Below, piece by piece: positions 3,786-38,270 of a DNA stretch of 64,000 nucleotides (position 1 is its first letter; the number at the start of each line of letters is the position of its first letter). The notes under the pieces are model-generated. The model saw only the letters and a program-made list of their open reading frames with translations, was not told the origin of the DNA and searched no databases. Source of the DNA: Nitrospirota bacterium (GTDB lineage Bacteria; Nitrospirota; UBA9217); contig DASPSR010000045.1 of the NCBI GenBank assembly GCA_035623825.1, forward strand, positions 1 through 64,000, written 5' to 3'. Both the position numbers and the translations under genes were made by a program.

Positions 3786-4859
3786 ATGCGTGATGACAGC
3801 GTGTATCAGAGTCTTGTCAAGCGCGGTGTGTCGCGGCGGGATTTCATGAAGTTCTGCACCGCCATGGCCGCAGCGCTGGCGCTGCCGGCATCGTATGCGA
3901 CAAAGATCGCCGCAGCGTTGGAGAAAGCTCAAAAACCGTATGTTGTATGGCTTGAATTCTCGGACTGTGCTGGCGATTCAGAGGCGACGCTCAGGGCGAC
4001 AAAGCCCACGATTGCCTCGCTCGTCCTCGATGTCATATCGCTCGAATATCACGAGACGATCATGACGCCCTCTGGAAAGGCTGCCGAGAAATCTCTGATG
4101 GACGTTGTCGATAAACAAAAAGGCAAATACATCGCTATCGTGGAAGGCGCGATTCCGATGAAGGAGAACGGTGTCTACTGTACCGTGAGCGGCAAGACGG
4201 CTGTCTCCACGGCCAAGCATGTGTGCGGTAATGCCATGGCTACCATAGCCGTAGGCTCGTGCGCAGCATGGGGCGGCGTTGCAAGCGCCTTCCCCAATCC
4301 GACAGGTTGCGTAGGCGTAAAAGATGCCGTAGCAGGCATCACCCTGGTGAATCTTCCCGGGTGCCCCCATAATGTCGAGAACCTCACTGCCACGATCGTA
4401 CACTTCCTGACCTTCAAGTCCCTCCCGCAGTTAGACAGCCACAATCGTCCGCTGTTTGCCTATGGCAAGAGGATCCATGACAACTGCGAGCGCCGCGCTC
4501 ACTTCGATGCCGGCCAGTTTGTGCGGAAGTGGGGCGATGAGGGTCATCGGCAGGGCTGGTGCCTGTACGAAATGGGCTGCAAAGGGCCGGAGGCGTATTT
4601 CAACTGTCCGACGGTCAAGTACAATGAAGGCACGAGCTGGCCTGTCCAGGCCGGCCACGGCTGCATAGCCTGCGCAGCCGATAACAACTGGGACACGATG
4701 TCGCCGATGTACAGGCGGCTGCCCACTGTTCCGGGGTTCGGAGTTGAGACAACGGCTGACAAGATCGGCGCCGGTCTCGCGGTAGCAACAGCAGTTGGTC
4801 TCGTGGCACACGGCATCGGAAGGGCCGCAAAGCCGAAAGATGAAAAAAAGCACGAATAG
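3786..4859 (+). CDS. [NiFe]-hydrogenase small subunit 1 (Tat-exported, membrane-anchored)
   Basis: SRRDFMK Tat motif, CAGD proximal motif, PGCP, HDNCERR/WCLYEMGCKGP distal cluster, SWP medial [3Fe-4S]-type, C-terminal TM helix. Confidence 0.95.
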   Translation: MRDDSVYQSLVKRGVSRRDFMKFCTAMAAALALPASYATKIAAALEKAQKPYVVWLEFSDCAGDSEATLRATKPTIASLVLDVISLEYHETIMTPSGKAAEKSLMDVVDKQKGKYIAIVEGAIPMKENGVYCTVSGKTAVSTAKHVCGNAMATIAVGSCAAWGGVASAFPNPTGCVGVKDAVAGITLVNLPGCPHNVENLTATIVHFLTFKSLPQLDSHNRPLFAYGKRIHDNCERRAHFDAGQFVRKWGDEGHRQGWCLYEMGCKGPEAYFNCPTVKYNEGTSWPVQAGHGCIACAADNNWDTMSPMYRRLPTVPGFGVETTADKIGAGLAVATAVGLVAHGIGRAAKPKDEKKHE

Positions 4860-4896
4860 CTTGATATTCATAAAATTTTACTAAGGAGGAGGAGCT

Positions 4897-6612
4897 ATGC
4901 CGAAGATCGCAATAGATCCTATTACCAGGATCGAAGGTCATCTGAGAATTGAAGCTCAGGTCGAAGGCGGCAAGGTGACGGACGCATGGTCGTCCAGCAC
5001 CATGTTCCGGGGCATTGAGATCATTGTCAAAGATCGTGATCCCCGCGACGCGTGGCTGTTTGTCCAACGTATTTGAGGGGTCTGAACGACGGTTCACGCC
5101 ACCAGCTCGGTTCGAGCTGTAGAAAACGCCTTAGGAATCGTAATACCGGACAACGCACGGATCATCAGGAACCTCATCTCCGGGATTCAGTATGTGCAGG
5201 ATCATGTAATACATTTCTATCACCTCCATGCCCTTGACTGGGTCGACGTCGTGAGCGCGCTCAAGGCGGACCCGGCAAAGACGTCGTCTCTGGCCATGTC
5301 AATATCTGACTGGCATAATTCCTCAACGACGTATTTCAAGGGCGTCCAGCAGAAGGTCAAAGCTCTCGTAGAGAGCGGCCAGCTCGGCATCTTTGCCAAC
5401 GGGTATTGGGGCCATCCGGCCTATAAACTGCCTCCCGAGGCGAACCTCATGGCCGTTGCCCACTATCTCGAGGCGCTTGACTGGCAGCGAGATGTCATCA
5501 GGATGCAGGCGCTCCTTGGCGCCAAGAACCCGCACGCCCAGACGTACCTGGTGGGCGGCGTAGCCATCCCTGTCGACCCCAACAGCCAGAATGCCTTGAA
5601 CGCGGGCAGTATTGCGTTCATGTCCGAAATCTCGAAGAAGGCATACGACTTCGTCGCGAAGGTGTACATTCCCGACCTGCTCGCAGTCGCCTCGTTCTAC
5701 AAGGACTGGGCGGCCTACGGCGCCGGCGTGGGCAACTTCCTTTCCTACGGTGAATTCCCTAATGACAATGCGTTGAATACCACGAACCTCTGGTTGCCGC
5801 GGGGCATCATCAAGAACAAGGACATAAGCAAGGTCCTTCCTGTCGACCAGGCAAAGGTCTCGGAGTATGTCAGCCATTCCTGGTATGATTACAGCGGTGG
5901 GGACGCGAAAGGAAAGCACCCGTGGGAAGGCGAAACGAACTTCAAGTACACAGGCCCTACTCCGCCCTTCGAGAACGGCTTTGTGAGCGACAAGCAGAAG
6001 TACTCCTGGGTCAAGGCGCCACGGTATGAAGATATGCCGATGGAGGTTGGCCCGCTCGCGAGGATGCTCGTGGCATACGTGTCGGGCCACAAGCGCGTAA
6101 AAGAAGTGGTGAACATGTGTCTGCAAAAGCTCGGCGTAGGCCCGGCCGCTCTCTTCTCGACCCTCGGCCGCGTCGCGGCACGGGGTATCGAGACGTTCGT
6201 CACTGCGGAGATGCTGCCCACCTGGATCGATCAGCTCGCGGCGAACATGGGCAAGGGCGACCTGCGCATCCACAACGGCGAGAAGTGGGATCCCGCTACG
6301 TGGCCCAAGGAAGCCAAGGGCTTCGGGTTCCATGAGGCGCCGCGCGGCAGCCTCTGCCACTGGATCCTCATCAAGGACGGCAAGATCGCAAATTACCAGG
6401 CCGTCGTTCCGGGCACCTGGAACGGCTCGCCGCGTGATGCGAAGGGGCAGCACGGCCCCTGGGAAGCAGCACTCGTCGGCACTCCGGTACATGACCCGAA
6501 CAAACCGATAGAGATCCTCCGGACGGTCCATTCATTCGACCCCTGCATGGCATGCGCCGTGCACGTGGTGGACCCGGAGGGCAAGGAAGTCACGAGGATC
6601 AAGATCGTCTAA
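4897..6612 (+). CDS. [NiFe]-hydrogenase large subunit 1 with two in-frame TGA (putative Sec60 and Sec63) in the L1 motif
   Basis: RBS AGGAGGAGG; MPKIAIDPITRIEGHLRIE...RDPRDAWLFVQRI*GV*TTVH is in frame with ORF 5194-6612, which ends HSFDPCMACAVH plus a 15-aa extension. Confidence 0.92.
5086..5125 (+). promoter_or_regulatory. Putative bacterial SECIS element
   Basis: Perfect stem CAGCTCG(5103-5109)/CGAGCTG(5113-5119) with G-initiated apical loop, about 24 and 33 nt after the two TGAs. Confidence 0.7.
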
Positions 6613-6627
6613 GAAAGGAGGTAGACC

Positions 6628-7293
6628 ATGCAGCCAAACAGGATTAGGGCGTATGTATGGGAATTCCCGGTCCGGTTCACCCACTGGATCAATGCCCTTT
6701 GCATCGTGATGTTCTGTATCACGGGCTTCTACATCGGGCGTCCGTTCATGCACGCCGTTTCATCTGAGCAGTACATCATGGGATGGATGCGGTTCCTCCA
6801 TTTCGCTTCGGGATACATATTCCTCCTGAGCATGATCATCAGGATCTACTGGATGTTTGCCGGCAACAAGTATGCGAGCTGGAGAGTGTTCATCCCCCTG
6901 ACCAGCAGGCAGTGGGAGGACATGATCGGCGGGCTGAAGTTCTATCTCTTCATGAAGAAGCAGCCGCCCTACGCGGCAGGGCATTCGGCCATGGCGTCGA
7001 TCACGTACCTCGGCGTGTTCATCCTGTTCCTCTTTGAGATCGCGTCTGGGTTCGCGCTCTATTCCCAGAGCCATTTAAAGAGCACGGTCCTGTGGCTTTG
7101 CGGCGGGTGGATGCTCAGCATCCTTCACGTGCAGACGGTCCGGCTGCTCCATCACATCGTCATGTGGCTCCTGATCGTCTTTACCGCCATCCATGTGTAT
7201 ATCGGGTGGTATCTTGACATCGCCGAGAAGAACGGAGTGATGGGCTCCATATTCGGCGGGTTCAAGTTCATTACGGGAAAGGAATGGGAATAA
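6628..7293 (+). CDS. Ni/Fe-hydrogenase b-type cytochrome subunit 1
   Basis: VWEFPVRFTHW, RFLHF, RLLHH, IHVY heme-ligand His; 4 TM; operon position. Confidence 0.93.
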   Translation: MQPNRIRAYVWEFPVRFTHWINALCIVMFCITGFYIGRPFMHAVSSEQYIMGWMRFLHFASGYIFLLSMIIRIYWMFAGNKYASWRVFIPLTSRQWEDMIGGLKFYLFMKKQPPYAAGHSAMASITYLGVFILFLFEIASGFALYSQSHLKSTVLWLCGGWMLSILHVQTVRLLHHIVMWLLIVFTAIHVYIGWYLDIAEKNGVMGSIFGGFKFITGKEWE

Positions 7294-7302
7294 AACAGTA
7301 TC

Positions 7303-7851
7303 GTGGGTGCTGATCAGAAGACATTTAGTCAAGACATGGTACGCCCGGAAGGTCACCGTGACTCCGGGCGTATCAGTGTTTTAGGCCTCGGCAACATTCT
7401 GCTCACCGATGAAGGCGTCGGGGTACACGCGGTAAACGCCATCAAGAAGAAGTATGCCTTTTCTCCCGAGATCGATATCATTGATGGCGGCACCATGGGT
7501 CTCGATCTGCTCCCCATCTTTCAAACGCAGGATAAGATCCTCATCGTTGACGCCGTCGACTTTAAAAAAGAGCCGGGTCATGTAGGCATCGTCGAAGGGA
7601 AAAACATCCCATCCGTTCTCAATACGAAGCTTTCTGTCCATCATATCGGGCTCTCTGACCTTCTTTTTACGGCAAAACTGACTCGCACCACGCCGCTGGA
7701 CGTCTACTTGGTCGGCATACAGCCGAAGTCATTCGATGTTGGCCTTGACATGACGGACGAGATCCGCACGCGGCTGGATGACATCATCGAGATCGCGTTA
7801 CGGAAACTCAAAGAATGGGATGTACAAATTAACATCAAGCCCCTGCCTTGA
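7303..7851 (+). CDS. Hydrogenase maturation endopeptidase 1 (HyaD/HybD family)
   Basis: GLGNILLTDEGVGV, DGGT, IVDAV, SVHHIGL. Confidence 0.93.
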   Translation: MGADQKTFSQDMVRPEGHRDSGRISVLGLGNILLTDEGVGVHAVNAIKKKYAFSPEIDIIDGGTMGLDLLPIFQTQDKILIVDAVDFKKEPGHVGIVEGKNIPSVLNTKLSVHHIGLSDLLFTAKLTRTTPLDVYLVGIQPKSFDVGLDMTDEIRTRLDDIIEIALRKLKEWDVQINIKPLP

Positions 7852-8344
7852 CGTGTCACGTCATCAGTATCCGCTCAACTTCAACGCTCATTAATTTACA
7901 CAAATCTTCCGCTCCTCCTCAAAAATTTTAGAAACAATCTATCAAATTTACAGATATTAGTCATAGGAATTCCCTATCGTTCATTAGAAAAATCATTTAT
8001 TAATTAAATACATAGAATATATTTTATTTCATCGCAGATTTGACAAATACGAAATTACCTGCTAATCTGAAATCGTACTTTACGCGGTGTGCTGTAATTG
8101 AACGCGCACGATCAAGGCAAGTCCTATTTCCCTTCTTTACATATTTAAATTGAGAGAATATTCTCGATTCCTTTTCAGAGTGATAGCTTTCTTGACTTAT
8201 TTTTTTTGCTCATTTCGGCGTAAGTAGGGACCGGTTTTACCACGGACATTGCCTTTTTGTGCGAAAGAGCTCTTTTTTCCAATCCTGCAGTATCACATTA
8301 CGGACAATTTTCATTTTTTAAAATACTACAAGGAGGATGCGCAA

Positions 8345-9454
8345 ATGAGTAAAAAGGAAGGTGCGAGTAAGCAGTTTCTTGACTCATTGGAGTTCCGTGG
8401 TATCAAACGCAGGGATTTTTTGAAGTTCTGCGGGGCAACTGCCGCCCTCATCGGACTCTCAGAATTTTACGTTCCCAAGATAGCCGCGGCGTTGGAAAAA
8501 GCCGCCAAAAGACAGCCGGTTGTATGGCTCAATTTTGCGTCTGATACGGGTTGTACCGAGGCCTTGATCAAGGCAACGTACCCCAGCGCCGCTGAGATCA
8601 TTCTCGATATCTTGAGCGTCGACTACAACGAAACGATCATGGCGGCCGCAGGGAAGCAGGCGGAGGAGATCCTTGACAAGTCTAAGAAAGCAGGGGGCTA
8701 TGTCCTTGTTGTTGAAGGCGGGATCCCGACCAAGAAAGGACACGGCATGATCGGGAACAAGGAGATGCTCGATGTCTTCAGAGAGTTTGCCGGTCCTGCC
8801 GTCGCGGTATTGGCGGTCGGCAGCTGTGCGACGACGGGAGGCGTTCCGGCGGCGAAACCGAACCCCTCGCAGATCATCGGCATCTCCGAGGCGCTCAAAA
8901 GGGTCGGCATTAATAAGCCGCTGATCAATCTCGACCTCTGTCCCGTGAACCCGCAATATCTCGTAGGCGTGGTGGTCAATTTCCTGCTCCTCGGAAAGCT
9001 CCCGGACCTCGACAGTGTCGGCAGACCGAAGATGTTCTACGGACAGACGATCCACGATAACTGCGAGCGCAGGGCGCACTTCGATGCCGGAAGGTTCGTA
9101 GAAAAGTTCGGCTCCAAGGAAGAGGCTCTCAACTATTGCCTCTACAAGATGGGCTGCAAAGGTCCGATGACCTATTCGGCTTGTTCAAAGATCCAGTATA
9201 ACAACCGAACAAGCTGGTGCATAAAGGCCGGAGGCCCCTGCATCGGTTGTGCCGAGCCCGGATGGACGGACAAGTTCGCCGGCTTCTATGAGAAACTTCC
9301 CGGCGTCAAGATCCCCGGGATCGGCGGCGTTGAAAAAGGCGCTGACACAATCGGTGCGGTTGCGGCAGCCGCGACAGCCGTGGGCATAGCGGTCCATGCC
9401 GCGGCAACGGCGGCGTCGGGCAGGACCAAAGAAGAAAAGGGAGGTGAAAAATAA
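8345..9454 (+). CDS. [NiFe]-hydrogenase small subunit 2 (Tat-exported)
   Basis: RBS AGGAGG before ATG 8345; KRRDFLK; DTGC proximal motif; SWC medial [4Fe-4S]-type; C-terminal TM. Confidence 0.95.
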   Translation: MSKKEGASKQFLDSLEFRGIKRRDFLKFCGATAALIGLSEFYVPKIAAALEKAAKRQPVVWLNFASDTGCTEALIKATYPSAAEIILDILSVDYNETIMAAAGKQAEEILDKSKKAGGYVLVVEGGIPTKKGHGMIGNKEMLDVFREFAGPAVAVLAVGSCATTGGVPAAKPNPSQIIGISEALKRVGINKPLINLDLCPVNPQYLVGVVVNFLLLGKLPDLDSVGRPKMFYGQTIHDNCERRAHFDAGRFVEKFGSKEEALNYCLYKMGCKGPMTYSACSKIQYNNRTSWCIKAGGPCIGCAEPGWTDKFAGFYEKLPGVKIPGIGGVEKGADTIGAVAAAATAVGIAVHAAATAASGRTKEEKGGEK

Positions 9455-11046
9455 TGGCCAGGATAACGATAGACCCATTTACGAGGATCGAAGGACATCT
9501 GAGGATCGACGTCGAGATCGAAGGCGGCAAGGTCAAGGATGCGTGGACGACAGGCACGCTGTTTAGGGGTTTTGAGATCATACTTCAGGGCAGGGATCCC
9601 AGAGATGCCTGGCATATTACCCAGCGCATCTGCGGCGTTTGTCCCACATCGCACGGACACACCTCGTCAATGAGCATGGATGACGCCTTCAAGGTAAGGC
9701 CGCCGGACAATGGCCGCATCCTCAGAAATATAATCGAGGGGGCCCAGTTCGTTCACTCCCATATTCTCTGGTTCTATCACCTGAATGCGCTGGATTATGT
9801 TGATGTTGTATCGGCACTGAAAGCCCAGCCGAAGGAGGCCTCGCTCAAGAAGGTCCATGCGAAGCTCAAGGCATTCGTCGAATCGGGGCAGCTCGGCCCC
9901 TTCGCCAATGCCTACTGGGGCCATCCCGCATACAAGCTGCCGCCGGATGTGAACCTCCTTGCAGTGGCACACTATCTCGAGGCACTCGAGATGCAGGCCA
10001 AGGCAGCTGAGGTGAGCGCCCTGTTCGGCGGCAGGATGCCGATGACCATGACGAGCCCTCCGGGCGGCGTAACGCATGTGCCGAGCGTCGATGACCTTAA
10101 AAACTATCTCTTCCGGATGAAAGAGCTTCAGGATTGGATTGATAACGTGTTCATTCCGGATGTCCTGGCCATCGCTCCGTTCTATCTCGACTGGGCAGCG
10201 GTAGGCAAGGGATTCGGGAACTTTCTTTCCTGGGGCGTGTTCGAGGATGCGTCCTTCGATCCCAAGAAACGGCTCCTGCCGAGAGGAGCAATATTCGCTT
10301 CGGATTTCCCGAAGGTCCACGATGCGAAGCCGGAGGACGTTACAGAGGACACGTCGCATGGCTGGTACAAGAGCGGCAAGCCGCTCAATCCGAGCGTGGG
10401 CGAGACGGAACCCGAATACACGGGCTACGACCCGAGCAAGAAATACACCTGGGCAAAGGCGCCTCGGCTCCAGGGCAAGCCCATGGAGGTCGGGGCCCTC
10501 GCCAGGATGCTCGTTGCCTATGCCTCCGGCCAGCCCACGGCCAAAAAGCTCATCGACAGCACGCTCACCGCTATCGGACATCCAGGACAGCCGCAGGTGC
10601 TCCTTGGCGTGATCGGAAGGATCGCCGGGCGGGCGCTCGAATGCAAGATGGTGGCGGATGCCATGTATCAATGGGGCCTCGACATCATCGAAAACATCAA
10701 GAAGGGGAATACGGCGGTGTACAATGAGTATAAGATCCCCGACAAGGCCCGCGGCATCGGACTTTGGGAAGCTCCGCGGGGCGCCTTGGGCCACTGGATC
10801 GACATAGAAGGCAAGAAGATAAAGAACTACCAGTGCGTGGTCCCGACTACGTGGAACGTCTGCCCCCGTGACGAGAGGGGGGTGCGTGGACCCATTGAAG
10901 AGGCCTTGATAGGGACCACGGTGGTGAATGCGGAGAAGCCGCTCGAGGTCATTCGTGTGGTTCACTCATTTGACCCCTGTCTTGCATGCACGGTGCATGT
11001 GATCCATCCCGAGTCTAACCGCATTATGGACTTCAAGGTCTGTTGA
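9454..11046 (+). CDS. [NiFe]-hydrogenase large subunit 2 (all-Cys; group 1a-like motifs)
   Basis: DPFTRIEGH, QRICGVCPTSH, HSFDPCLACTVH plus C-terminal extension. Confidence 0.96.
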   Translation: MARITIDPFTRIEGHLRIDVEIEGGKVKDAWTTGTLFRGFEIILQGRDPRDAWHITQRICGVCPTSHGHTSSMSMDDAFKVRPPDNGRILRNIIEGAQFVHSHILWFYHLNALDYVDVVSALKAQPKEASLKKVHAKLKAFVESGQLGPFANAYWGHPAYKLPPDVNLLAVAHYLEALEMQAKAAEVSALFGGRMPMTMTSPPGGVTHVPSVDDLKNYLFRMKELQDWIDNVFIPDVLAIAPFYLDWAAVGKGFGNFLSWGVFEDASFDPKKRLLPRGAIFASDFPKVHDAKPEDVTEDTSHGWYKSGKPLNPSVGETEPEYTGYDPSKKYTWAKAPRLQGKPMEVGALARMLVAYASGQPTAKKLIDSTLTAIGHPGQPQVLLGVIGRIAGRALECKMVADAMYQWGLDIIENIKKGNTAVYNEYKIPDKARGIGLWEAPRGALGHWIDIEGKKIKNYQCVVPTTWNVCPRDERGVRGPIEEALIGTTVVNAEKPLEVIRVVHSFDPCLACTVHVIHPESNRIMDFKVC

Positions 11047-11057
11047 GGGAGGATGCG

Positions 11058-11705
11058 ATGGAAAAAGACATGATACGAGAATGGAGTACGGGATACATTA
11101 TCGAGCACTGGGTCCGCGTTATTTCCATAGCCGTCCTGACCTTTACGGGCTTCTACATCCATTGGCCCTTCATAGCCGGCGGCACGGATAGCTTTATCAT
11201 GGCATGGAACCGTTTCTTTCACTTCATGGCGGCCTATGCCCTGATCCTCGGCCTTGTGGTGAGGGTCTACATGGCGTTCCGGTCGACGTTCGACAGCGAC
11301 TGGCAGGACTTCGGTCTTGTCCGGAACATTAAGAACCTTCCGGACATTCTGGGCTACTACCTGTTCATCAAGGGCTCGCACAAAGAGTACCGGAAGTATA
11401 ACCCCCTGCAGGCACTGGCGTACCTCGCCATCGGTCTTGTGATCATCTTCGAGGCGCTGAGCGGCGCGGCCATTTACCATGGATACTTGTTCGGGTTCAT
11501 TCCCTGTCCCGACAGCTTCAGGTGGGTGCTTAACCTGCTGGGCGGAGAAGGCGTCACACGGATGATACACTTCTTCGTGATGTGGTTCTTTATCATCTTT
11601 GTGTTGATCCATGTCTACATGGCCTTCATGATAGGTTGGGTGAACAAGGACGGAACCTTTACTTCGATTTTTACGGGCTATAAGCTCAAGAAGCACCACG
11701 AATGA
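11058..11705 (+). CDS. Ni/Fe-hydrogenase b-type cytochrome subunit 2
   Basis: EHW, RFFHF, YNPLQ, RMIHF, IHVY; RBS GGGAGG before ATG 11058. Confidence 0.92.
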   Translation: MEKDMIREWSTGYIIEHWVRVISIAVLTFTGFYIHWPFIAGGTDSFIMAWNRFFHFMAAYALILGLVVRVYMAFRSTFDSDWQDFGLVRNIKNLPDILGYYLFIKGSHKEYRKYNPLQALAYLAIGLVIIFEALSGAAIYHGYLFGFIPCPDSFRWVLNLLGGEGVTRMIHFFVMWFFIIFVLIHVYMAFMIGWVNKDGTFTSIFTGYKLKKHHE

Positions 11706-12208
11706 TGTCAGATCGTCAGATGAGGGGAGACGCTCAGGCGTCTCCCCAATCGATCTTGATTCTCGGTGTCGGAAATCTCTTGCTCGGGGACGACGGTTTC
11801 GGCGTTCATCTCATCAATGCGCTTAAAGATATCCCGTTTCCCCCCAATGTGCATCTTCTTGAGGCTGGTACGGTAAGCCACCAACTGATCCCCCTGTTCC
11901 GGGAGATCGAACATCTCATCGTTCTTGACGTCGTGGAAGCCGGCGATATCCCCGGCTCCATCTTCCGCTTTTCTCCCGACGACATGCAGTTTCCGACAGA
12001 GCAGAAAGCATCCCTGCACCAGATAAGTCTTATCGATGTCCTTCGCATGGCGGAGTTGACGGGCGGCAAGCCAAAGACCGTCATACTTGCGGTGCAACCC
12101 AAGGATGTCTCTTCCTGGTCTTTAGATCTGAGCGACGAGCTCGAGGCAATCATTCCCAAAGTCAAGGAGCTTGTCGTTGAGGAACTGAAAAAAATCAAGG
12201 CATTATGA
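11702..12208 (+). CDS. Hydrogenase maturation endopeptidase 2
   Basis: GVGNLLLGDDGFGV, SLHQ motif. Confidence 0.92.
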   Translation: MMSDRQMRGDAQASPQSILILGVGNLLLGDDGFGVHLINALKDIPFPPNVHLLEAGTVSHQLIPLFREIEHLIVLDVVEAGDIPGSIFRFSPDDMQFPTEQKASLHQISLIDVLRMAELTGGKPKTVILAVQPKDVSSWSLDLSDELEAIIPKVKELVVEELKKIKAL

Positions 12209-12716: not shown

Positions 12717-13916
12717 ATGCTGATACGCAAGGCATTTCAGTACAGGATCCGGTTCTCCAAACCGGGCGAGGACGCAGCACTTACTCGGTTCGCCGGATGC
12801 TGCCGCTTCGTCTGGAACAAGGCCCTCTCCCTGCAGAAGGAGCGGCTGGACAGCAAGAAGCGCATCCTTTCCTATCCGGAGATGGCAGACCTTCTCCTTG
12901 TCTGGAAAAAGGAGCATCCGTTCCTCACGGAGGCCCCCTCGCAGGCGCTGCAGCAGCGGCTCATGGATTTAGACAAGGCGCTCCATGAAGCGTTCGACCC
13001 TCATAACCCCAAGCGGTTCCCCAGGTTCAAGAAGAAGCACAAGTGCCGCGAGTCCTTCAGGTACCCGCAGGGGTTCGCGGTGAAGAAGAACCGGGTCTAT
13101 CTCCCCAAATTCGGCTGGGCCAGGTTCTATAAAAGCCGCGAGATATCCGGCAACCCCAAAAACGTCACAGTATCGAGGAAAGGGGGCCATTGGTTCTTCT
13201 CCGTGCAGACGGAGATGGAAGTTGGCGGGCCGGTGCACCCATCCAAAACACAGATCGGCGTGGACTTCGGTGTCAAAAGACTCATTACTCTTTCCGACGG
13301 TATGGGGTTTCTTCCGATTAATGCATTAAAGAAGCACCTTAAGGGCCTGCGCGATGCGCAGAGAAGGCTCGCACGAATGGTAAAGAGGTCTAACAACTGG
13401 AAAAAGCAGAAAAGAACGATCCGGGATATTCATATCAGGATTGCCGATATCCGCTCAGACTGGCTGCACAGGGTATCACACTATTTGAGCAAAAACCACG
13501 CTTTGATCGTGCTTGAGGACCTTGGCATCAAAGACATGAGCGCATCGGCAAAGGGGACGATTGAAAATCCCGGAAGGAACGTTAGGCAGAAGGCCGGTCT
13601 CAACCGCGCCATTCTCGACCAGGGGTGGGGAGAACTCATGCGCCAGATACAGTACAAGCAGGAATGGCTGGGCGGCATGACGCTCTTCGTCGACCCCGCC
13701 CATACGAGCCAGGAATGCGCCGTATGCGGCCATGTTTCGCCTGAGAACAGGCAGTCTCGAGATTTGTTCAACTGCGTGCAATGCGGCCATGTTGAGAACG
13801 CCGACGAGAATGCCGCGAAAGTCGTGCTGTCAAGGGTGGGTCACACCCGGGTGATCTGTGGATCGAACGGTGCTGTAATGCCGTCGGAAGCAGAAACCGA
13901 AACAGTGCTGTCGTAA
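12717..13916 (+). CDS. tnpB: RNA-guided endonuclease TnpB
   Basis: N-terminal HTH, RuvC-I GVDFG, RuvC-II LEDL, Zn finger TSQECAVCG...CVQCG, RuvC-III NADENAA. Confidence 0.95.
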   Translation: MLIRKAFQYRIRFSKPGEDAALTRFAGCCRFVWNKALSLQKERLDSKKRILSYPEMADLLLVWKKEHPFLTEAPSQALQQRLMDLDKALHEAFDPHNPKRFPRFKKKHKCRESFRYPQGFAVKKNRVYLPKFGWARFYKSREISGNPKNVTVSRKGGHWFFSVQTEMEVGGPVHPSKTQIGVDFGVKRLITLSDGMGFLPINALKKHLKGLRDAQRRLARMVKRSNNWKKQKRTIRDIHIRIADIRSDWLHRVSHYLSKNHALIVLEDLGIKDMSASAKGTIENPGRNVRQKAGLNRAILDQGWGELMRQIQYKQEWLGGMTLFVDPAHTSQECAVCGHVSPENRQSRDLFNCVQCGHVENADENAAKVVLSRVGHTRVICGSNGAVMPSEAETETVLS

Positions 13917-14067: not shown

Positions 14068-14607
14068 ATGTGCCTTGCCATCCCTTCACTGATTGTAAGC
14101 ATCGATGACCTTATCGCAACGATTGACGTGTACGGCGCACGACGACAGGTGAGCCTCATGCTCCTGCCTGAGGCTCCGCGGATAGGGGATTATGTCCTTG
14201 TCCACGCCGGATTTGCGATCCAGAAGATAGCCAAGGAGACCGTTGAATCAGGTGAGATCATGCACGAAGCATCCATAGCCTTAAGCATCCTCGATATCGT
14301 CCAGACCAAATGCCAGGAGGAAGGGTGCCGCTCGGTGGATTCCGTCAAGGTCAGGATCGGAAAGGCGGCGGGGATCCTTCCCGATTCCCTTATATTCGCT
14401 TTTGACGCGGCGAAAGACAACACGGTTGCGAAGAACGCAACGCTCACCATCGAGACTGTGCCGGTCGGCGGTACCTGCCGTGACTGCAAGAAAGAGTTCA
14501 CGGTCGAGGACGCGCAGTACGTATTCTCTTGCCCTCACTGCGGCTCCAAATCCTTCGAGATCACCAGTGGCCGCGAAATGGATATCGTGGACATGGAGAT
14601 CAACTAA
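14068..14607 (+). CDS. hypC/hypA: HypC-HypA fusion protein
   Basis: MCLAIP...GDYVLVHAGFAI (HypC) continues in frame into MHEASI...CRDC...CPHC...GRE (HypA) from codon 65 (ATG 14260). Confidence 0.9.
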   Translation: MCLAIPSLIVSIDDLIATIDVYGARRQVSLMLLPEAPRIGDYVLVHAGFAIQKIAKETVESGEIMHEASIALSILDIVQTKCQEEGCRSVDSVKVRIGKAAGILPDSLIFAFDAAKDNTVAKNATLTIETVPVGGTCRDCKKEFTVEDAQYVFSCPHCGSKSFEITSGREMDIVDMEIN

Positions 14608-36296: not shown

Positions 36297-36788
36297 ATGA
36301 TCCGTGCGGCAATTATCACGCTGAGCGACAAAGGCGCATCGGGAGAGCGGCTTGACGAGAGCGGTCCGATTATCCGCGAGATGATCGCCGGCATCGGCGC
36401 CTCTGTCGTTCACTACGACATCCTGCCGGATGAAAAATCGGGAATCATCGACCTATTGATAAGATTATGTGACGCTGGAAACGTCGATCTCATCATCACG
36501 ACCGGCGGTACAGGCGTGGCCCCGCGGGATGTGACGCCGGAGGCCACGCTTTCTGTGATCGACCGCGAGCTTCCAGGCATGGCGGAAGCCATGCGAGCCG
36601 AAAGCCTCAAAAAGACGCCGCGCGCCATGATATCCCGGGCCATTGCCGGCATCAGGAAACACACCCTGATCGTGAACCTCCCAGGCAGCCCCCGGGCTGT
36701 GCGCGAAAACCTTGCCGTGATCCTTCCTGCCATCCCCCATACGATCGAAAAGATCAAGGGTGATCCTTCGGAATGCGGCGGTTTGTAG
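36297..36788 (+). CDS. Molybdopterin adenylyltransferase MogA/MoaB
   Basis: TTGGTG, RDVTPEAT, NLPGSP. Confidence 0.92.
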   Translation: MIRAAIITLSDKGASGERLDESGPIIREMIAGIGASVVHYDILPDEKSGIIDLLIRLCDAGNVDLIITTGGTGVAPRDVTPEATLSVIDRELPGMAEAMRAESLKKTPRAMISRAIAGIRKHTLIVNLPGSPRAVRENLAVILPAIPHTIEKIKGDPSECGGL

Positions 36789-36963
36789 CCGGGGCACGGC
36801 GCACACCTGCGCATGGCGAACAGCATCCGACGTAGCCCCGTTCTCGCGCGATGCGGCACTTTCCCCTGGTCATTCCCATGAAAAAATCCATTTGTCTCTC
36901 TCCGGTCTCTGTGATACACTTCTTAAAAATGCTCAATACGACCATGCATAACGAGGAGGGCCT

Positions 36964-37716
36964 ATGTTCTGTTCCCAATGCGGCAAGGAGGTAGCTGAAG
37001 GCCAGGCATTCTGCCCGCACTGCGGAGCCAGTCTTGCCGAACCCGCGCCGCCTGCCGGGGCGAGGGAAAAGACGCCTTGGGAGGACCGTGAAGCGCGGGG
37101 TTTTTTCACCGGGCTTTTTACGACCGTCAGGGACACATTGTTCCAGCCATCGGAATTTTTCAAGAAAATGCCGGTCACCGGCGGGCTTACAGACCCATTG
37201 CTGTATGCTCTGATCGTTGGGATGATCGGCCTTATGTTCTCGTATTTCTGGCAGGTCCTGCTTCAGGGTGCAATGCAGGAGACCATGTTCCCCGCGATGA
37301 AGACCGTTGCAGGGCAGAACATGTTCCGAGGAATCGGCATGGCCGCTCTGGCCTTCTTCAGTCCTTTTCTGATCATTCTCTGGCTCTTTGTCTGGTCGGG
37401 GGTTCTCCACCTGTTTCTTATGATGGTCAAGGGTGCGAGGTCCGGCTTCGAGGCAACCTTCAGAGTGGTAGCCTACAGTTCCAGTACGAACCTTCTTCTC
37501 ATCGTCCCCTTTTGCGGAAGCATTTTCGCGGGGGTGTGGGCCATCGTTCTCACGATCATCGGGATCAGGGAAGCACATGAGACGACGGGGGGAAAGGCGG
37601 CCATTGCGGTCTTCTTCCCTATCGTCGTCTGCTGTGGACTGATTCTTGCCGCCATAGCGCTGTTCGTGGGCGCTGCAGCGGTATCATTGGGCACTTTCAT
37701 GCAGATGCAGCAGTGA
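36964..37716 (+). CDS. Zinc-ribbon plus Yip1-domain membrane protein
   Basis: FCSQCG...FCPHCG, PWE, about 5 TM. Confidence 0.8.
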   Translation: MFCSQCGKEVAEGQAFCPHCGASLAEPAPPAGAREKTPWEDREARGFFTGLFTTVRDTLFQPSEFFKKMPVTGGLTDPLLYALIVGMIGLMFSYFWQVLLQGAMQETMFPAMKTVAGQNMFRGIGMAALAFFSPFLIILWLFVWSGVLHLFLMMVKGARSGFEATFRVVAYSSSTNLLLIVPFCGSIFAGVWAIVLTIIGIREAHETTGGKAAIAVFFPIVVCCGLILAAIALFVGAAAVSLGTFMQMQQ

Positions 37717-37734
37717 TGTGAAACGCATACTGAT

Positions 37735-38142
37735 ATGCGCCTGATACTGAAAGAGCGGATGCGTGGTCAAATAGAGTTCGGCATCATTTATGGCGGCATT
37801 GCCTTGCTCGCGGTCTTCGTAGGGCGGTTTGTGCCCGTACTTTCGTTTGCCCCTTCCTGCGTTTTCAAAGGTCTCACGGGCGTTCCGTGCCCCACCTGTG
37901 GCGCCACGCGTTCGGTTGTGCATTTTGCCCATGGAGAGCTTTCCGCGTCGCTTAGTTTGAACCCGCTGGTCCCGTTGTGCCTTGTCATTGCTTCCATTAT
38001 ATTTTTTTACAGTCTGACTACCCTGATTCTTGGCATCCCGCGCATCGGGATCATTCTTTCCGATCGTGAAAAGAACATTGCAAGGGCCGCAATGATCGCT
38101 CTCGTTTTGGCGAACTGGTGTTATCTGATCTTTTCGCGGTAA
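37735..38142 (+). CDS. DUF2752-like membrane protein
   Basis: CVFKGLTGVPCPTCGATRS, NPL. Confidence 0.8.
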   Translation: MRLILKERMRGQIEFGIIYGGIALLAVFVGRFVPVLSFAPSCVFKGLTGVPCPTCGATRSVVHFAHGELSASLSLNPLVPLCLVIASIIFFYSLTTLILGIPRIGIILSDREKNIARAAMIALVLANWCYLIFSR

Positions 38143-38270
38143 TTTCCTTATCTTCACGTCTGTCCTTTCTGTTTGAATAATAATATTATTTACATTTAGT
38201 CCATAGTATGTTAAAATAATTATCTTTTAGGAATAATCCAAATAAATTAGGCGGTTACGGAGGGTACGGC

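Follow-up and report, generated by a model that had tools for sequence, protein, structure and literature searches.

Can one selenocysteine insertion sequence (SECIS) serve two UGA codons that lie only 9 nt apart? The question is raised by a hydrogenase gene on a stretch of 64,000 nt of DNA from a Nitrospirota bacterium (assembly GCA_035623825.1, contig DASPSR010000045.1, positions 1 to 64,000; this whole stretch is hereafter called the window). The gene (4897-6612, + strand, as are all features below unless indicated) encodes the large subunit of a Group 1 [NiFe] hydrogenase and reads for 571 codons through two in-frame TGAs, namely UGA-1 (codon 60, 5074-5076) and UGA-2 (codon 63, 5083-5085), which are followed by a SECIS-like hairpin, CAGCUCG/CGAGCUG (5103-5119). 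A first-pass annotation, made from the sequence letters, had proposed that this single SECIS drives double selenocysteine (Sec) insertion in a UxxU motif. By comparison with related loci, the predicted role as a SECIS is well supported, and on balance the element at 5103-5119 is probably a bacterial SECIS inside the coding sequence (CDS) of a Group 1, cytochrome-b-linked [NiFe] large subunit, putatively serving both UGAs. The SECIS-like behaviour proposed for the hairpin was therefore upheld, whereas "single", given a second conserved hairpin at 5083-5096, and "double Sec" go beyond the evidence; one SECIS for two Sec residues is plausible by analogy with a published parallel in Group 4 hydrogenases.

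Results

Translated with both TGAs read through, the frame 4897-6612 yields 571 residues with no further stop, and an AAGGAGG ribosome-binding site lies immediately 5' of its start. The product matches Pfam PF00374 (NiFeSe_Hases) with 792 bits over residues 38-556; its closest solved chain is 3myr_B (E = 3e-216), the chains of E. coli Hyd-1 and Hyd-2 rank lower, and the solved canonical [NiFeSe] chains are much weaker matches (~1e-100). A gapless alignment puts both TGAs on cysteines of QRICGVCT (3myr_B) and RACGVCT (1frv_B), UGA-1 on the first and UGA-2 on the second Cys of RxCGxC, and the N-terminal motif reads R-I-U-G-V-U-T-T-V-H, where U stands for TGA. We take the first of these cysteines to be the terminal Ni ligand and the second to be the Ni-Fe bridging ligand, presumably Cys65 and Cys68 in D. 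gigas numbering. The same N-terminal pair is C76/C79 in the E. coli Hyd-1 numbering of PMC8020662. At the other end, the motif DPCMACAVH has Cys at all ligand positions and is followed by 14 residues, an extension after the His for protease cleavage. The large-subunit fold, the N- and C-terminal motifs and this extension, together with an operon in which the small subunit is of Group 1 type and is accompanied by a membrane b-type cytochrome and a HyaD/HybD protease, place the enzyme in Group 1, an assignment made at the level of the group as a whole (subgroups 1a-1k). Furthermore, TGA terminates 16 of the 23 Pfam-supported genes in the window; it is thus an ordinary stop in this organism, so recoding would be site-specific, and TGA reassignment is ruled out.

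Relatives were sought by a protein scan of genome contigs, which gave 601 stretches, 595 of them encoding relatives, and the best 80 (57-81% identity) were kept; the window's own genome is absent from this set. TGA occupies both ligand codons in 25 of the 80 loci (UxxU, TGA...TGA) and the second codon after TGC in 4 (CxxU, TGC...TGA), while 51 loci have Cys at both and none has the UxxC form (TGA...TGC). The second ligand codon is therefore TGA in 29 loci and the first in 25, and with the window added there are 30 TGA-bearing genes, 26 of them UxxU. The DPCxAC motif is found in all 75 rows that extend to it, the other five being truncated or frameshifted earlier. Late frameshifts in L023, L047 (with a run of unknown bases) and L066 are probably assembly errors of metagenome-assembled genomes, the frames being otherwise intact.

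In a quick maximum-likelihood tree of 82 rows, calculated with the motif columns excluded, the frameshifted tails of L023, L047 and L066 trimmed and the second large subunit of the window as outgroup, the clade that includes the window comprises 28 rows (Shimodaira-Hasegawa-like approximate likelihood ratio test, SH-aLRT, 95), mostly Nitrospirota, with 23 UxxU, 3 CxxU and 2 Cys genes. Two separate Sec groups were recovered: L004 (UxxU) with L054 (CxxU), from Methylomirabilota/Rokubacteria, and L005 with L007 (both UxxU), from Chloroflexota and sister to the Cys gene L060. Four separate label changes on the tree are required to account for the four CxxU genes. Two of these, L054 and L056, each have a UxxU gene as immediate sister, and the other two, L035 and L045, lie within clades that contain UxxU genes.

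With the 59-aa N-terminal stub that precedes UGA-1 as query, 1911 short proteins were found at E <= 1e-5 among 1924 candidates of 32-104 aa. Among the best 120 of these 1911, 115 are exactly 59 aa long and 119 stop just before the first ligand codon, the remaining one stopping at RICGV. Such short proteins carry the database names "Ni,Fe-hydrogenase I large subunit" or "hypothetical protein", and the predicted Group 1 UxxU form is, judging from these fragments, common in databases.

The region of the hairpin aligns without gaps across the relatives, and the consensus in the 30 TGA-bearing genes is CAGCUC-CGUGA-GAGCUG. Covariation among TGA-bearing versus Cys homologues, which had been suggested as a check, was indeed found. 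Of the cells of the 6-bp helix, 87.9% are paired in register in the 30 TGA-bearing genes against 47.0% in 50 Cys genes, and compensatory changes on both sides occur at four of the six pairs, one pair being A:U in 11 genes, U:A in 5 and G:C in 3, and the next being G:C in 18 and C:G in 3. The codons involved change together (AGC...GCT, TGC...GCA, GCT...AGC and GCC...GGC), the last two combinations being non-synonymous, with Ala replaced by Ser or Gly. When this helix was scored jointly with that of the smaller hairpin described below, 92.2% of cells were paired versus at most 44.2% with the partners slid by 1-3 columns, and the covariation score was 0.112 versus 0.053 for shuffled alignments, a value reached by 0 of 500 shuffles, with the caveat that related sequences can beat shuffles in this tool without any structure.

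To compare all genes in the same way, a uniform criterion was applied, i.e., a minimum free energy (MFE) hairpin of at least 5 bp within offsets 24-49, with its loop in offsets 34-40 and a G among the first two loop bases. By this criterion, 29 of the 30 TGA-bearing genes and 0 of the 51 Cys genes carry the hairpin; consequently, it is neither equally present in Cys-only orthologues nor missing from other TGA-bearing orthologues, the two outcomes that had been named in advance as speaking against a SECIS. The only TGA-bearing gene that fails, L007, can form the in-register stem CGCCUC/GAGGCG. Eight genes (L023, L034, L036, L038, L040, L041, L043 and L046) fold in a shifted register with 8 bp, a 1-nt bulge and a GGU loop; a stricter MFE criterion with three fixed top pairs, passed by 19 of 30, was dropped because it misses this bulged class.

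G-T at offsets 36-37 is present in 30/30 TGA-bearing genes and in 28/51 Cys genes, and in the former it is unpaired in 29 of the 30 MFE folds. The Val codon of the loop is GTG in 29 of 30 genes, giving loops such as CGUGA and GGU, and the GTT of the window is the exception. In this context, the G-first apical loop that had been described is true of the window (GUU at 5110-5112, or GGUUC with the top pair open), which is an outlier of the family, but what the family conserves is an unpaired G-U and not a G in first place. Moreover, L048 and L053, the two Cys genes that lie inside the main Sec clade, encode Ile instead of Val at the loop G, and pairs of their stem are disrupted. Position and form of the hairpin are equal in the 4 CxxU and the 26 UxxU genes, which fits one element for both codons and does not prove it.

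As a separate observation, an invariant GACCC (5038-5042, Asp-Pro codons) can pair with GGGGUC (5077-5082, the Gly-Val codons between the UGAs) and so enclose UGA-1; this long-range GACCC/GGGUC helix, obtained with RNAalifold, is invariant and without covariation.

In the window itself, the TGAs and the perfect 7-bp stem were confirmed as annotated, with CAGCTCG at 5103-5109, GTT at 5110-5112 and CGAGCTG at 5113-5119. The loop G lies 33 nt after UGA-1 and 24 nt after UGA-2, as had been reported, or 36 and 27 nt when counted from the U of each codon; the stem begins 26 nt past UGA-1 and 17 nt past UGA-2, inside the large-subunit reading frame, and the hairpin sequence occurs once in the window. 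The arms do use A/T-ending codons in a gene that mostly avoids them (G+C fraction at third codon positions 0.75; GTT in 5/51 Val, CGA in 2/22 Arg and GCT in 5/57 Ala codons). The internal control also behaved as stated: in the second large subunit, the corresponding 36-nt segment 3' of the Cys codons folds at only -3.4 kcal/mol and lacks a comparable stem; nevertheless, the control is a weak one, because the two subunits are distant paralogues and differ in peptide sequence at this place.

Perfect 7-bp hairpins with loops of 3-8 nt number 31 on the + strand of the 64 kb, i.e., ~1.2% per 25-nt target. In synonymous resampling, with the protein fixed and codons redrawn from the window's own usage in 20000 trials, at least six in-register pairs arose in 160 (0.8%). 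The RNAfold calculation recommended for 5074-5140 gave -22.6 kcal/mol (z = -1.96, 6/200 shuffles as good), whereas in a 141-nt context the energy signal was absent (z = -0.09). Rfam returned nothing relevant on the whole window at the gathering threshold or on 4850-5350 at E values up to 10, the sole match being a chance 8-bit match to a tmRNA model. On the data of the window alone, the hairpin is moderately beyond chance.

A second, smaller hairpin, UGAAC-GACG-GUUCA (5083-5096; 5 bp and a 4-nt loop in the MFE fold), holds UGA-2 in its 5' arm and takes the form UGAAC-NACG-GUUCA in the relatives. Among TGA-bearing genes 97.2% of its cells are paired; the codons for U/C-T...V-H impose four of its five pairs, and the free fifth pair joins the third base of UGA-2 to the third base of the Val codon. 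This free pair is A:U in 25 of the 29 distinct TGA-bearing sequences, and it is paired in 16 of 50 Cys genes. The Val codon is GTT in 26 and the Thr codon of the loop is ACG in 27 of the 30 TGA-bearing genes, each versus ~25% gene-wide. The mini-hairpin was rejected as a SECIS of its own for UGA-1, its loop being 14 nt from that codon and having no conserved G in the first two positions. Furthermore, the codon before UGA-1 (5071-5073) is ATA in 23 of 26 UxxU genes versus 33% of Ile codons gene-wide, and the codon before the first ligand is ATA in 1/4 CxxU genes and in 1/25 Ile-bearing Cys genes; the window has ATT. This distribution raises the possibility that AUA provides UGA-1 with a 5' context signal. 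On the other side of the Sec/Cys divide, the Cys-type L060 (4163-4234) keeps ATA, the ACG and GTT of the mini-hairpin and the main stem with one mismatch, a pattern that suggests either that both UGAs were lost recently or that the gene represents a pre-adapted ancestral state.

Regarding the remaining genes, the operon begins with the hydrogenase small subunit (3786-4859; Oxidored_q6 and NiFe_hyd_SSU_C; TIGR00391, 446.8 bits, above cut-off) and continues after the large subunit with a b-type cytochrome subunit (6628-7293; Pfam match; TIGR02125, 166.2 bits, above cut-off) and a HyaD/HybD-type maturation endopeptidase (7303-7851; Pfam match; TIGR00140, above cut-off). An all-Cys operon of equal layout lies downstream (8249-12208) and contains the second large subunit (9454-11046; RICGVC, first Cys codon at 9631) used above as internal control; hyp genes come after it. 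An IS605 OrfB/TnpB-like gene (12717-13916, +) with the domains HTH_OrfB_IS605, OrfB_IS605 and Cas12f1-like TNB separates this second operon from the hyp genes. An open reading frame (ORF) of 179 aa (14068-14607, +) consists of a near-complete HypC (residues 1-60) followed by a complete HypA (65-178), and no stop interrupts the junction ...ETVESGEI-MHEASIALS..., which reflects either a fusion or an internal hypA start. A selenoprotein candidate at 36952-38142 (+) was discarded, being two same-frame genes with an ordinary TGA stop between them, a zinc-ribbon membrane protein and then a small CPxC membrane protein; the opposite-strand ORFs over this pair (36754-37578 and 37684-38157) have no Pfam match.

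Discussion

The hairpin at 5103-5119 has the attributes by which bacterial SECIS elements are recognized: it lies just 3' of an in-frame UGA inside the CDS, it is a stem-loop with an unpaired G-U in the loop, G being first or second there, in line with the published consensus (PMC13582414; PMC8659212), its UGA-loop distance is compatible, and its covariation is kept with UGA and lost with Cys. No other canonical SECIS candidate was found 3' of UGA-1. The UGA-to-loop range of bSECISearch is 16-37 nt. According to the mechanism that we favor, SelB and its tRNA would bind the G-U loop and deliver when UGA-2 is in the A site (27 nt), and the same hairpin, still folded 9 nt earlier, would also serve UGA-1 (36 nt). 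The element would be set for UGA-2 and UGA-1 would be an add-on to the UGA-2 system, as suggested by the absence of genes with UGA-1 alone among the 80 loci. In the resulting enzyme, two Se and two S ligands would coordinate the nickel. Recoding in E. coli reaches 30-40% per UGA (PMC4513850), and if these values applied here, two sites would yield ~10-16% of full-length product.

A more ambitious form of this proposal, which we put forward tentatively and with more doubt than confidence, is that a large and hitherto unannotated clade of membrane-bound Group 1 hydrogenases ligates nickel by two Sec residues, one terminal and one bridging, which would be made by a dedicated four-part tandem-recoding cassette. 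Its parts would be the AUA-UGA context, the 6-nt spacer, the mini-hairpin that contains UGA-2 and collapses the distance to the SECIS during decoding of UGA-1, and the single SelB-binding hairpin used twice. Carriers of UxxU or CxxU belong to Nitrospirota, Chloroflexota and Methylomirabilota/Rokubacteria, and the proposed clade would also include Thermodesulfobacteriota.

Several observations count against the favored reading of the hairpin as a SECIS for both codons. The 36 nt of UGA-1 are near the upper end of the range of bSECISearch, and work on E. coli, where the determinant is the unpaired loop G23/U24 of a hairpin 11 nt from the UGA (PMC8659212), suggests a fixed spacing, so that a tolerance of 9 nt is an assumption. 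The mini-hairpin is conserved too, and "one element" may therefore be incomplete. Regarding stability, 1763 of the 20000 synonymous resamples (8.8%) fold at or below the observed energy, the signal vanishes in the 141-nt context, and UxxU and Cys genes cannot be told apart by their mean fold energy at offsets 20-55 (-9.9 versus -9.6 kcal/mol over 36 nt), several GC-rich Cys genes folding well with loops placed differently. RNAalifold, applied to 72-nt and 180-nt Sec-type alignments, recovered only the top three pairs of the hairpin (-1.14 kcal/mol), a weak recovery attributable to the eight genes in the shifted, bulged register. Furthermore, the pairing potential is partly inherent in the peptide (Ala/Ser...Arg-Ala), and phylogenetically independent Sec/Cys contrasts number only 3-4, with which a sign test cannot reach significance. 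Finally, none of selA, selB, selC and selD is present in the 64-kb window, and ARAGORN detected tRNA genes neither in the window nor in any of the 29 Sec-type loci.

It is rather unlikely, in our opinion, that both hairpins are required in a two-element cassette, where the main hairpin would be the SECIS proper and UGA-1 would also need the mini-hairpin (5083-5096) and local context. While UGA-1 occupies the A site, the mRNA channel would be filled by the 6-nt spacer, with the mini-hairpin folded at the channel entrance; there it could pause the ribosome or shorten the effective path to the SECIS (36 nt less the 14 folded nt, close to the 27 nt of UGA-2) before melting to present UGA-2, a geometry inferred from ribosome dimensions. 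The A:U bias of the free pair, the preference for ACG and for GTT (used for only 5/51 Val codons in the window gene) and the enrichment of ATA before UGA-1 in UxxU genes all agree with such an arrangement, and both hairpins arise jointly in just 21 of 20000 synonymous resamples. However, with four of five pairs forced by codons, the mini-hairpin is largely built into the protein and appears in 14.8% of resamples; it is kept in all four CxxU genes, which lack UGA-1, and its NACG loop, without a conserved early G, is not SECIS-like in itself. In addition, most TGA-bearing genes belong to one clade, so that shared ancestry inflates the counts, and in the two other Sec clades GTT is found in 2/4 genes.

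Improbable, too, is SECIS-dependent recoding in which one or both UGAs are read as Cys by the SelB-dependent tRNA-ReC, which would leave a partly or wholly ordinary [NiFe] enzyme. According to the published data on UxxU hydrogenases, tRNA-ReC-like genes occur in ~56% of the genomes that encode them versus ~2.3% of other Sec-type genomes, and Cys insertion at one UGA or at both is stated to be possible (PMC13582414). The repeated flipping of UGA-1 between TGA and TGC on our tree, seen in the four label changes and in L054 and L056, agrees with this possibility. Likewise, E. coli Hyd-1 engineered to carry C76U or C79U retained just 3% or 13%, respectively, of its activity (PMC8020662), so that Sec at these positions is not obviously advantageous. 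Nonetheless, two costly UGAs kept in 26 genes of four or more phyla are hard to explain if the product equals that of TGC, and the window and the 29 Sec-type loci, having no tRNA gene, contain nothing that bears on tRNA-ReC.

That the hairpin is a by-product of the peptide or of chance, and the TGAs sequencing errors, signs of a pseudogene or reassigned codons, is very improbable: the Ala/Ser...Arg-Ala codons are partly self-complementary, Cys genes are often equally stable here and the fold energy is reached in 8.8% of resamples and shows no signal in the 141-nt context, but TGA falls exactly at both ligand codons in 25 independent assemblies with frames otherwise intact, 119 of the 120 top-ranking short database proteins stop immediately ahead of the first TGA, and the stem co-changes are compensatory, even non-synonymous, with the uniform criterion separating 29/30 from 0/51.

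The SECIS that putatively serves both UGAs has its nearest parallel in the 16 UXXU sequences of Group 4b hydrogenases described by Takano et al. (2026; PMC13582414), in a survey from which Groups 1-3 were excluded by design. These authors reported a SECIS-like hairpin whose loop G is fully conserved, and conserved in ~26% of Cys relatives, and suggested that one SECIS may serve both UGAs, while cautioning that tRNA-ReC may insert Cys; they regard UXXC and UXXU as previously unrecognised and state, citing Baltazar 2011, that Group 1 was known only with C-terminal UXXC and two CXXU sequences (PMC13582414). As in their Group 4b proteins, in the gene described here both N-terminal Ni-ligand cysteines are replaced by UGA with Cys kept in the C-terminal motif, one downstream hairpin with G in loop position 1 or 2 is common to the CXXU and UXXU forms, and the loop G is lost in Cys relatives. 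In contrast, the Group 4b enzymes are energy-converting complexes, whereas the operon and best matches of the window are Group 1, and the form occurs here in 25 of the best 80 relatives and 119 of the best 120 short fragments, compared with those 16 sequences. The main-text sections on SECIS in PMC13582414 do not mention a mini-hairpin or an AUA context for Group 4b.

Canonical [NiFeSe] enzymes of the HysA type (PDB 2wpn and 1cc1) are likewise periplasmic or membrane-associated Group 1 enzymes; they use Sec as a Ni ligand, decoded by means of an in-frame UGA and an intra-CDS SECIS, as is predicted here. They differ in having Sec at the first Cys of the C-terminal motif (DPUxxC), while here this motif is DPCMAC and the UGAs are N-terminal. 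In fact, the NCBIfam HysA model NF045518 scores 422.6 bits against the large subunit, below its cut-off of 780, so the protein falls outside the HysA definition. In E. coli fdhF, the U of the UGA is separated from the loop G by 22 nt. The window shares with the fdhF SECIS a stem-loop 3' of the UGA inside the CDS with an unpaired G-U tip, but in E. coli there is one UGA, with the hairpin beginning 11 nt past it (PMC8659212), compared with the 17 and 26 nt given above. Moreover, the window stem has no bulged U, and the eight relatives in the shifted register have a 1-nt bulge.

Two Sec codons 9 nt apart in a motif derived from CxxC are also known from other predicted UxxU selenoproteins, i.e., a Prx-like oxidoreductase, a mercuric-reductase-like metal-binding protein and the FmdB family, which are thiol-redox or metal-binding proteins and not hydrogenases (PMC13188914; PMC9312934). 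The lists of selenoproteins in these two reviews give hydrogenases with UxxC only, and in the passages of the Geobacter proteomics papers that deal with Sec (PMC7894505; PMC8691401), it is mentioned only for formate dehydrogenase. Full-text literature searches, with subscription journals outside their coverage, found no description of a Group 1 UxxU enzyme, and the clade appears unreported.

Conclusion

From its sequence, the gene split by UGA would encode a Group 1 hydrogenase whose N-terminal nickel ligands form a UxxU motif, decoded through a putative in-frame SECIS with possible accessory signals. Since gene callers split this gene at UGA-1, what is a common environmental uptake hydrogenase is probably counted too rarely or assigned to the wrong class in hydrogenase surveys. 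If Se occupied both N-terminal ligands and S the canonical Sec position, the arrangement would be the reverse of that of the known [NiFeSe] enzymes, and it would provide a natural Group 1 Se enzyme comparable directly with the engineered E. coli Hyd-1 variants C76U and C79U. In addition, with two UGAs 9 nt apart and one conserved hairpin, nature offers a system that can test the strictness of the UGA-SECIS spacing imposed by SelB and the ribosome; if the proposal is true, a single bacterial SECIS would work here, in a natural gene family, at two spacings, contrary to the fixed-spacing rule derived from E. coli.

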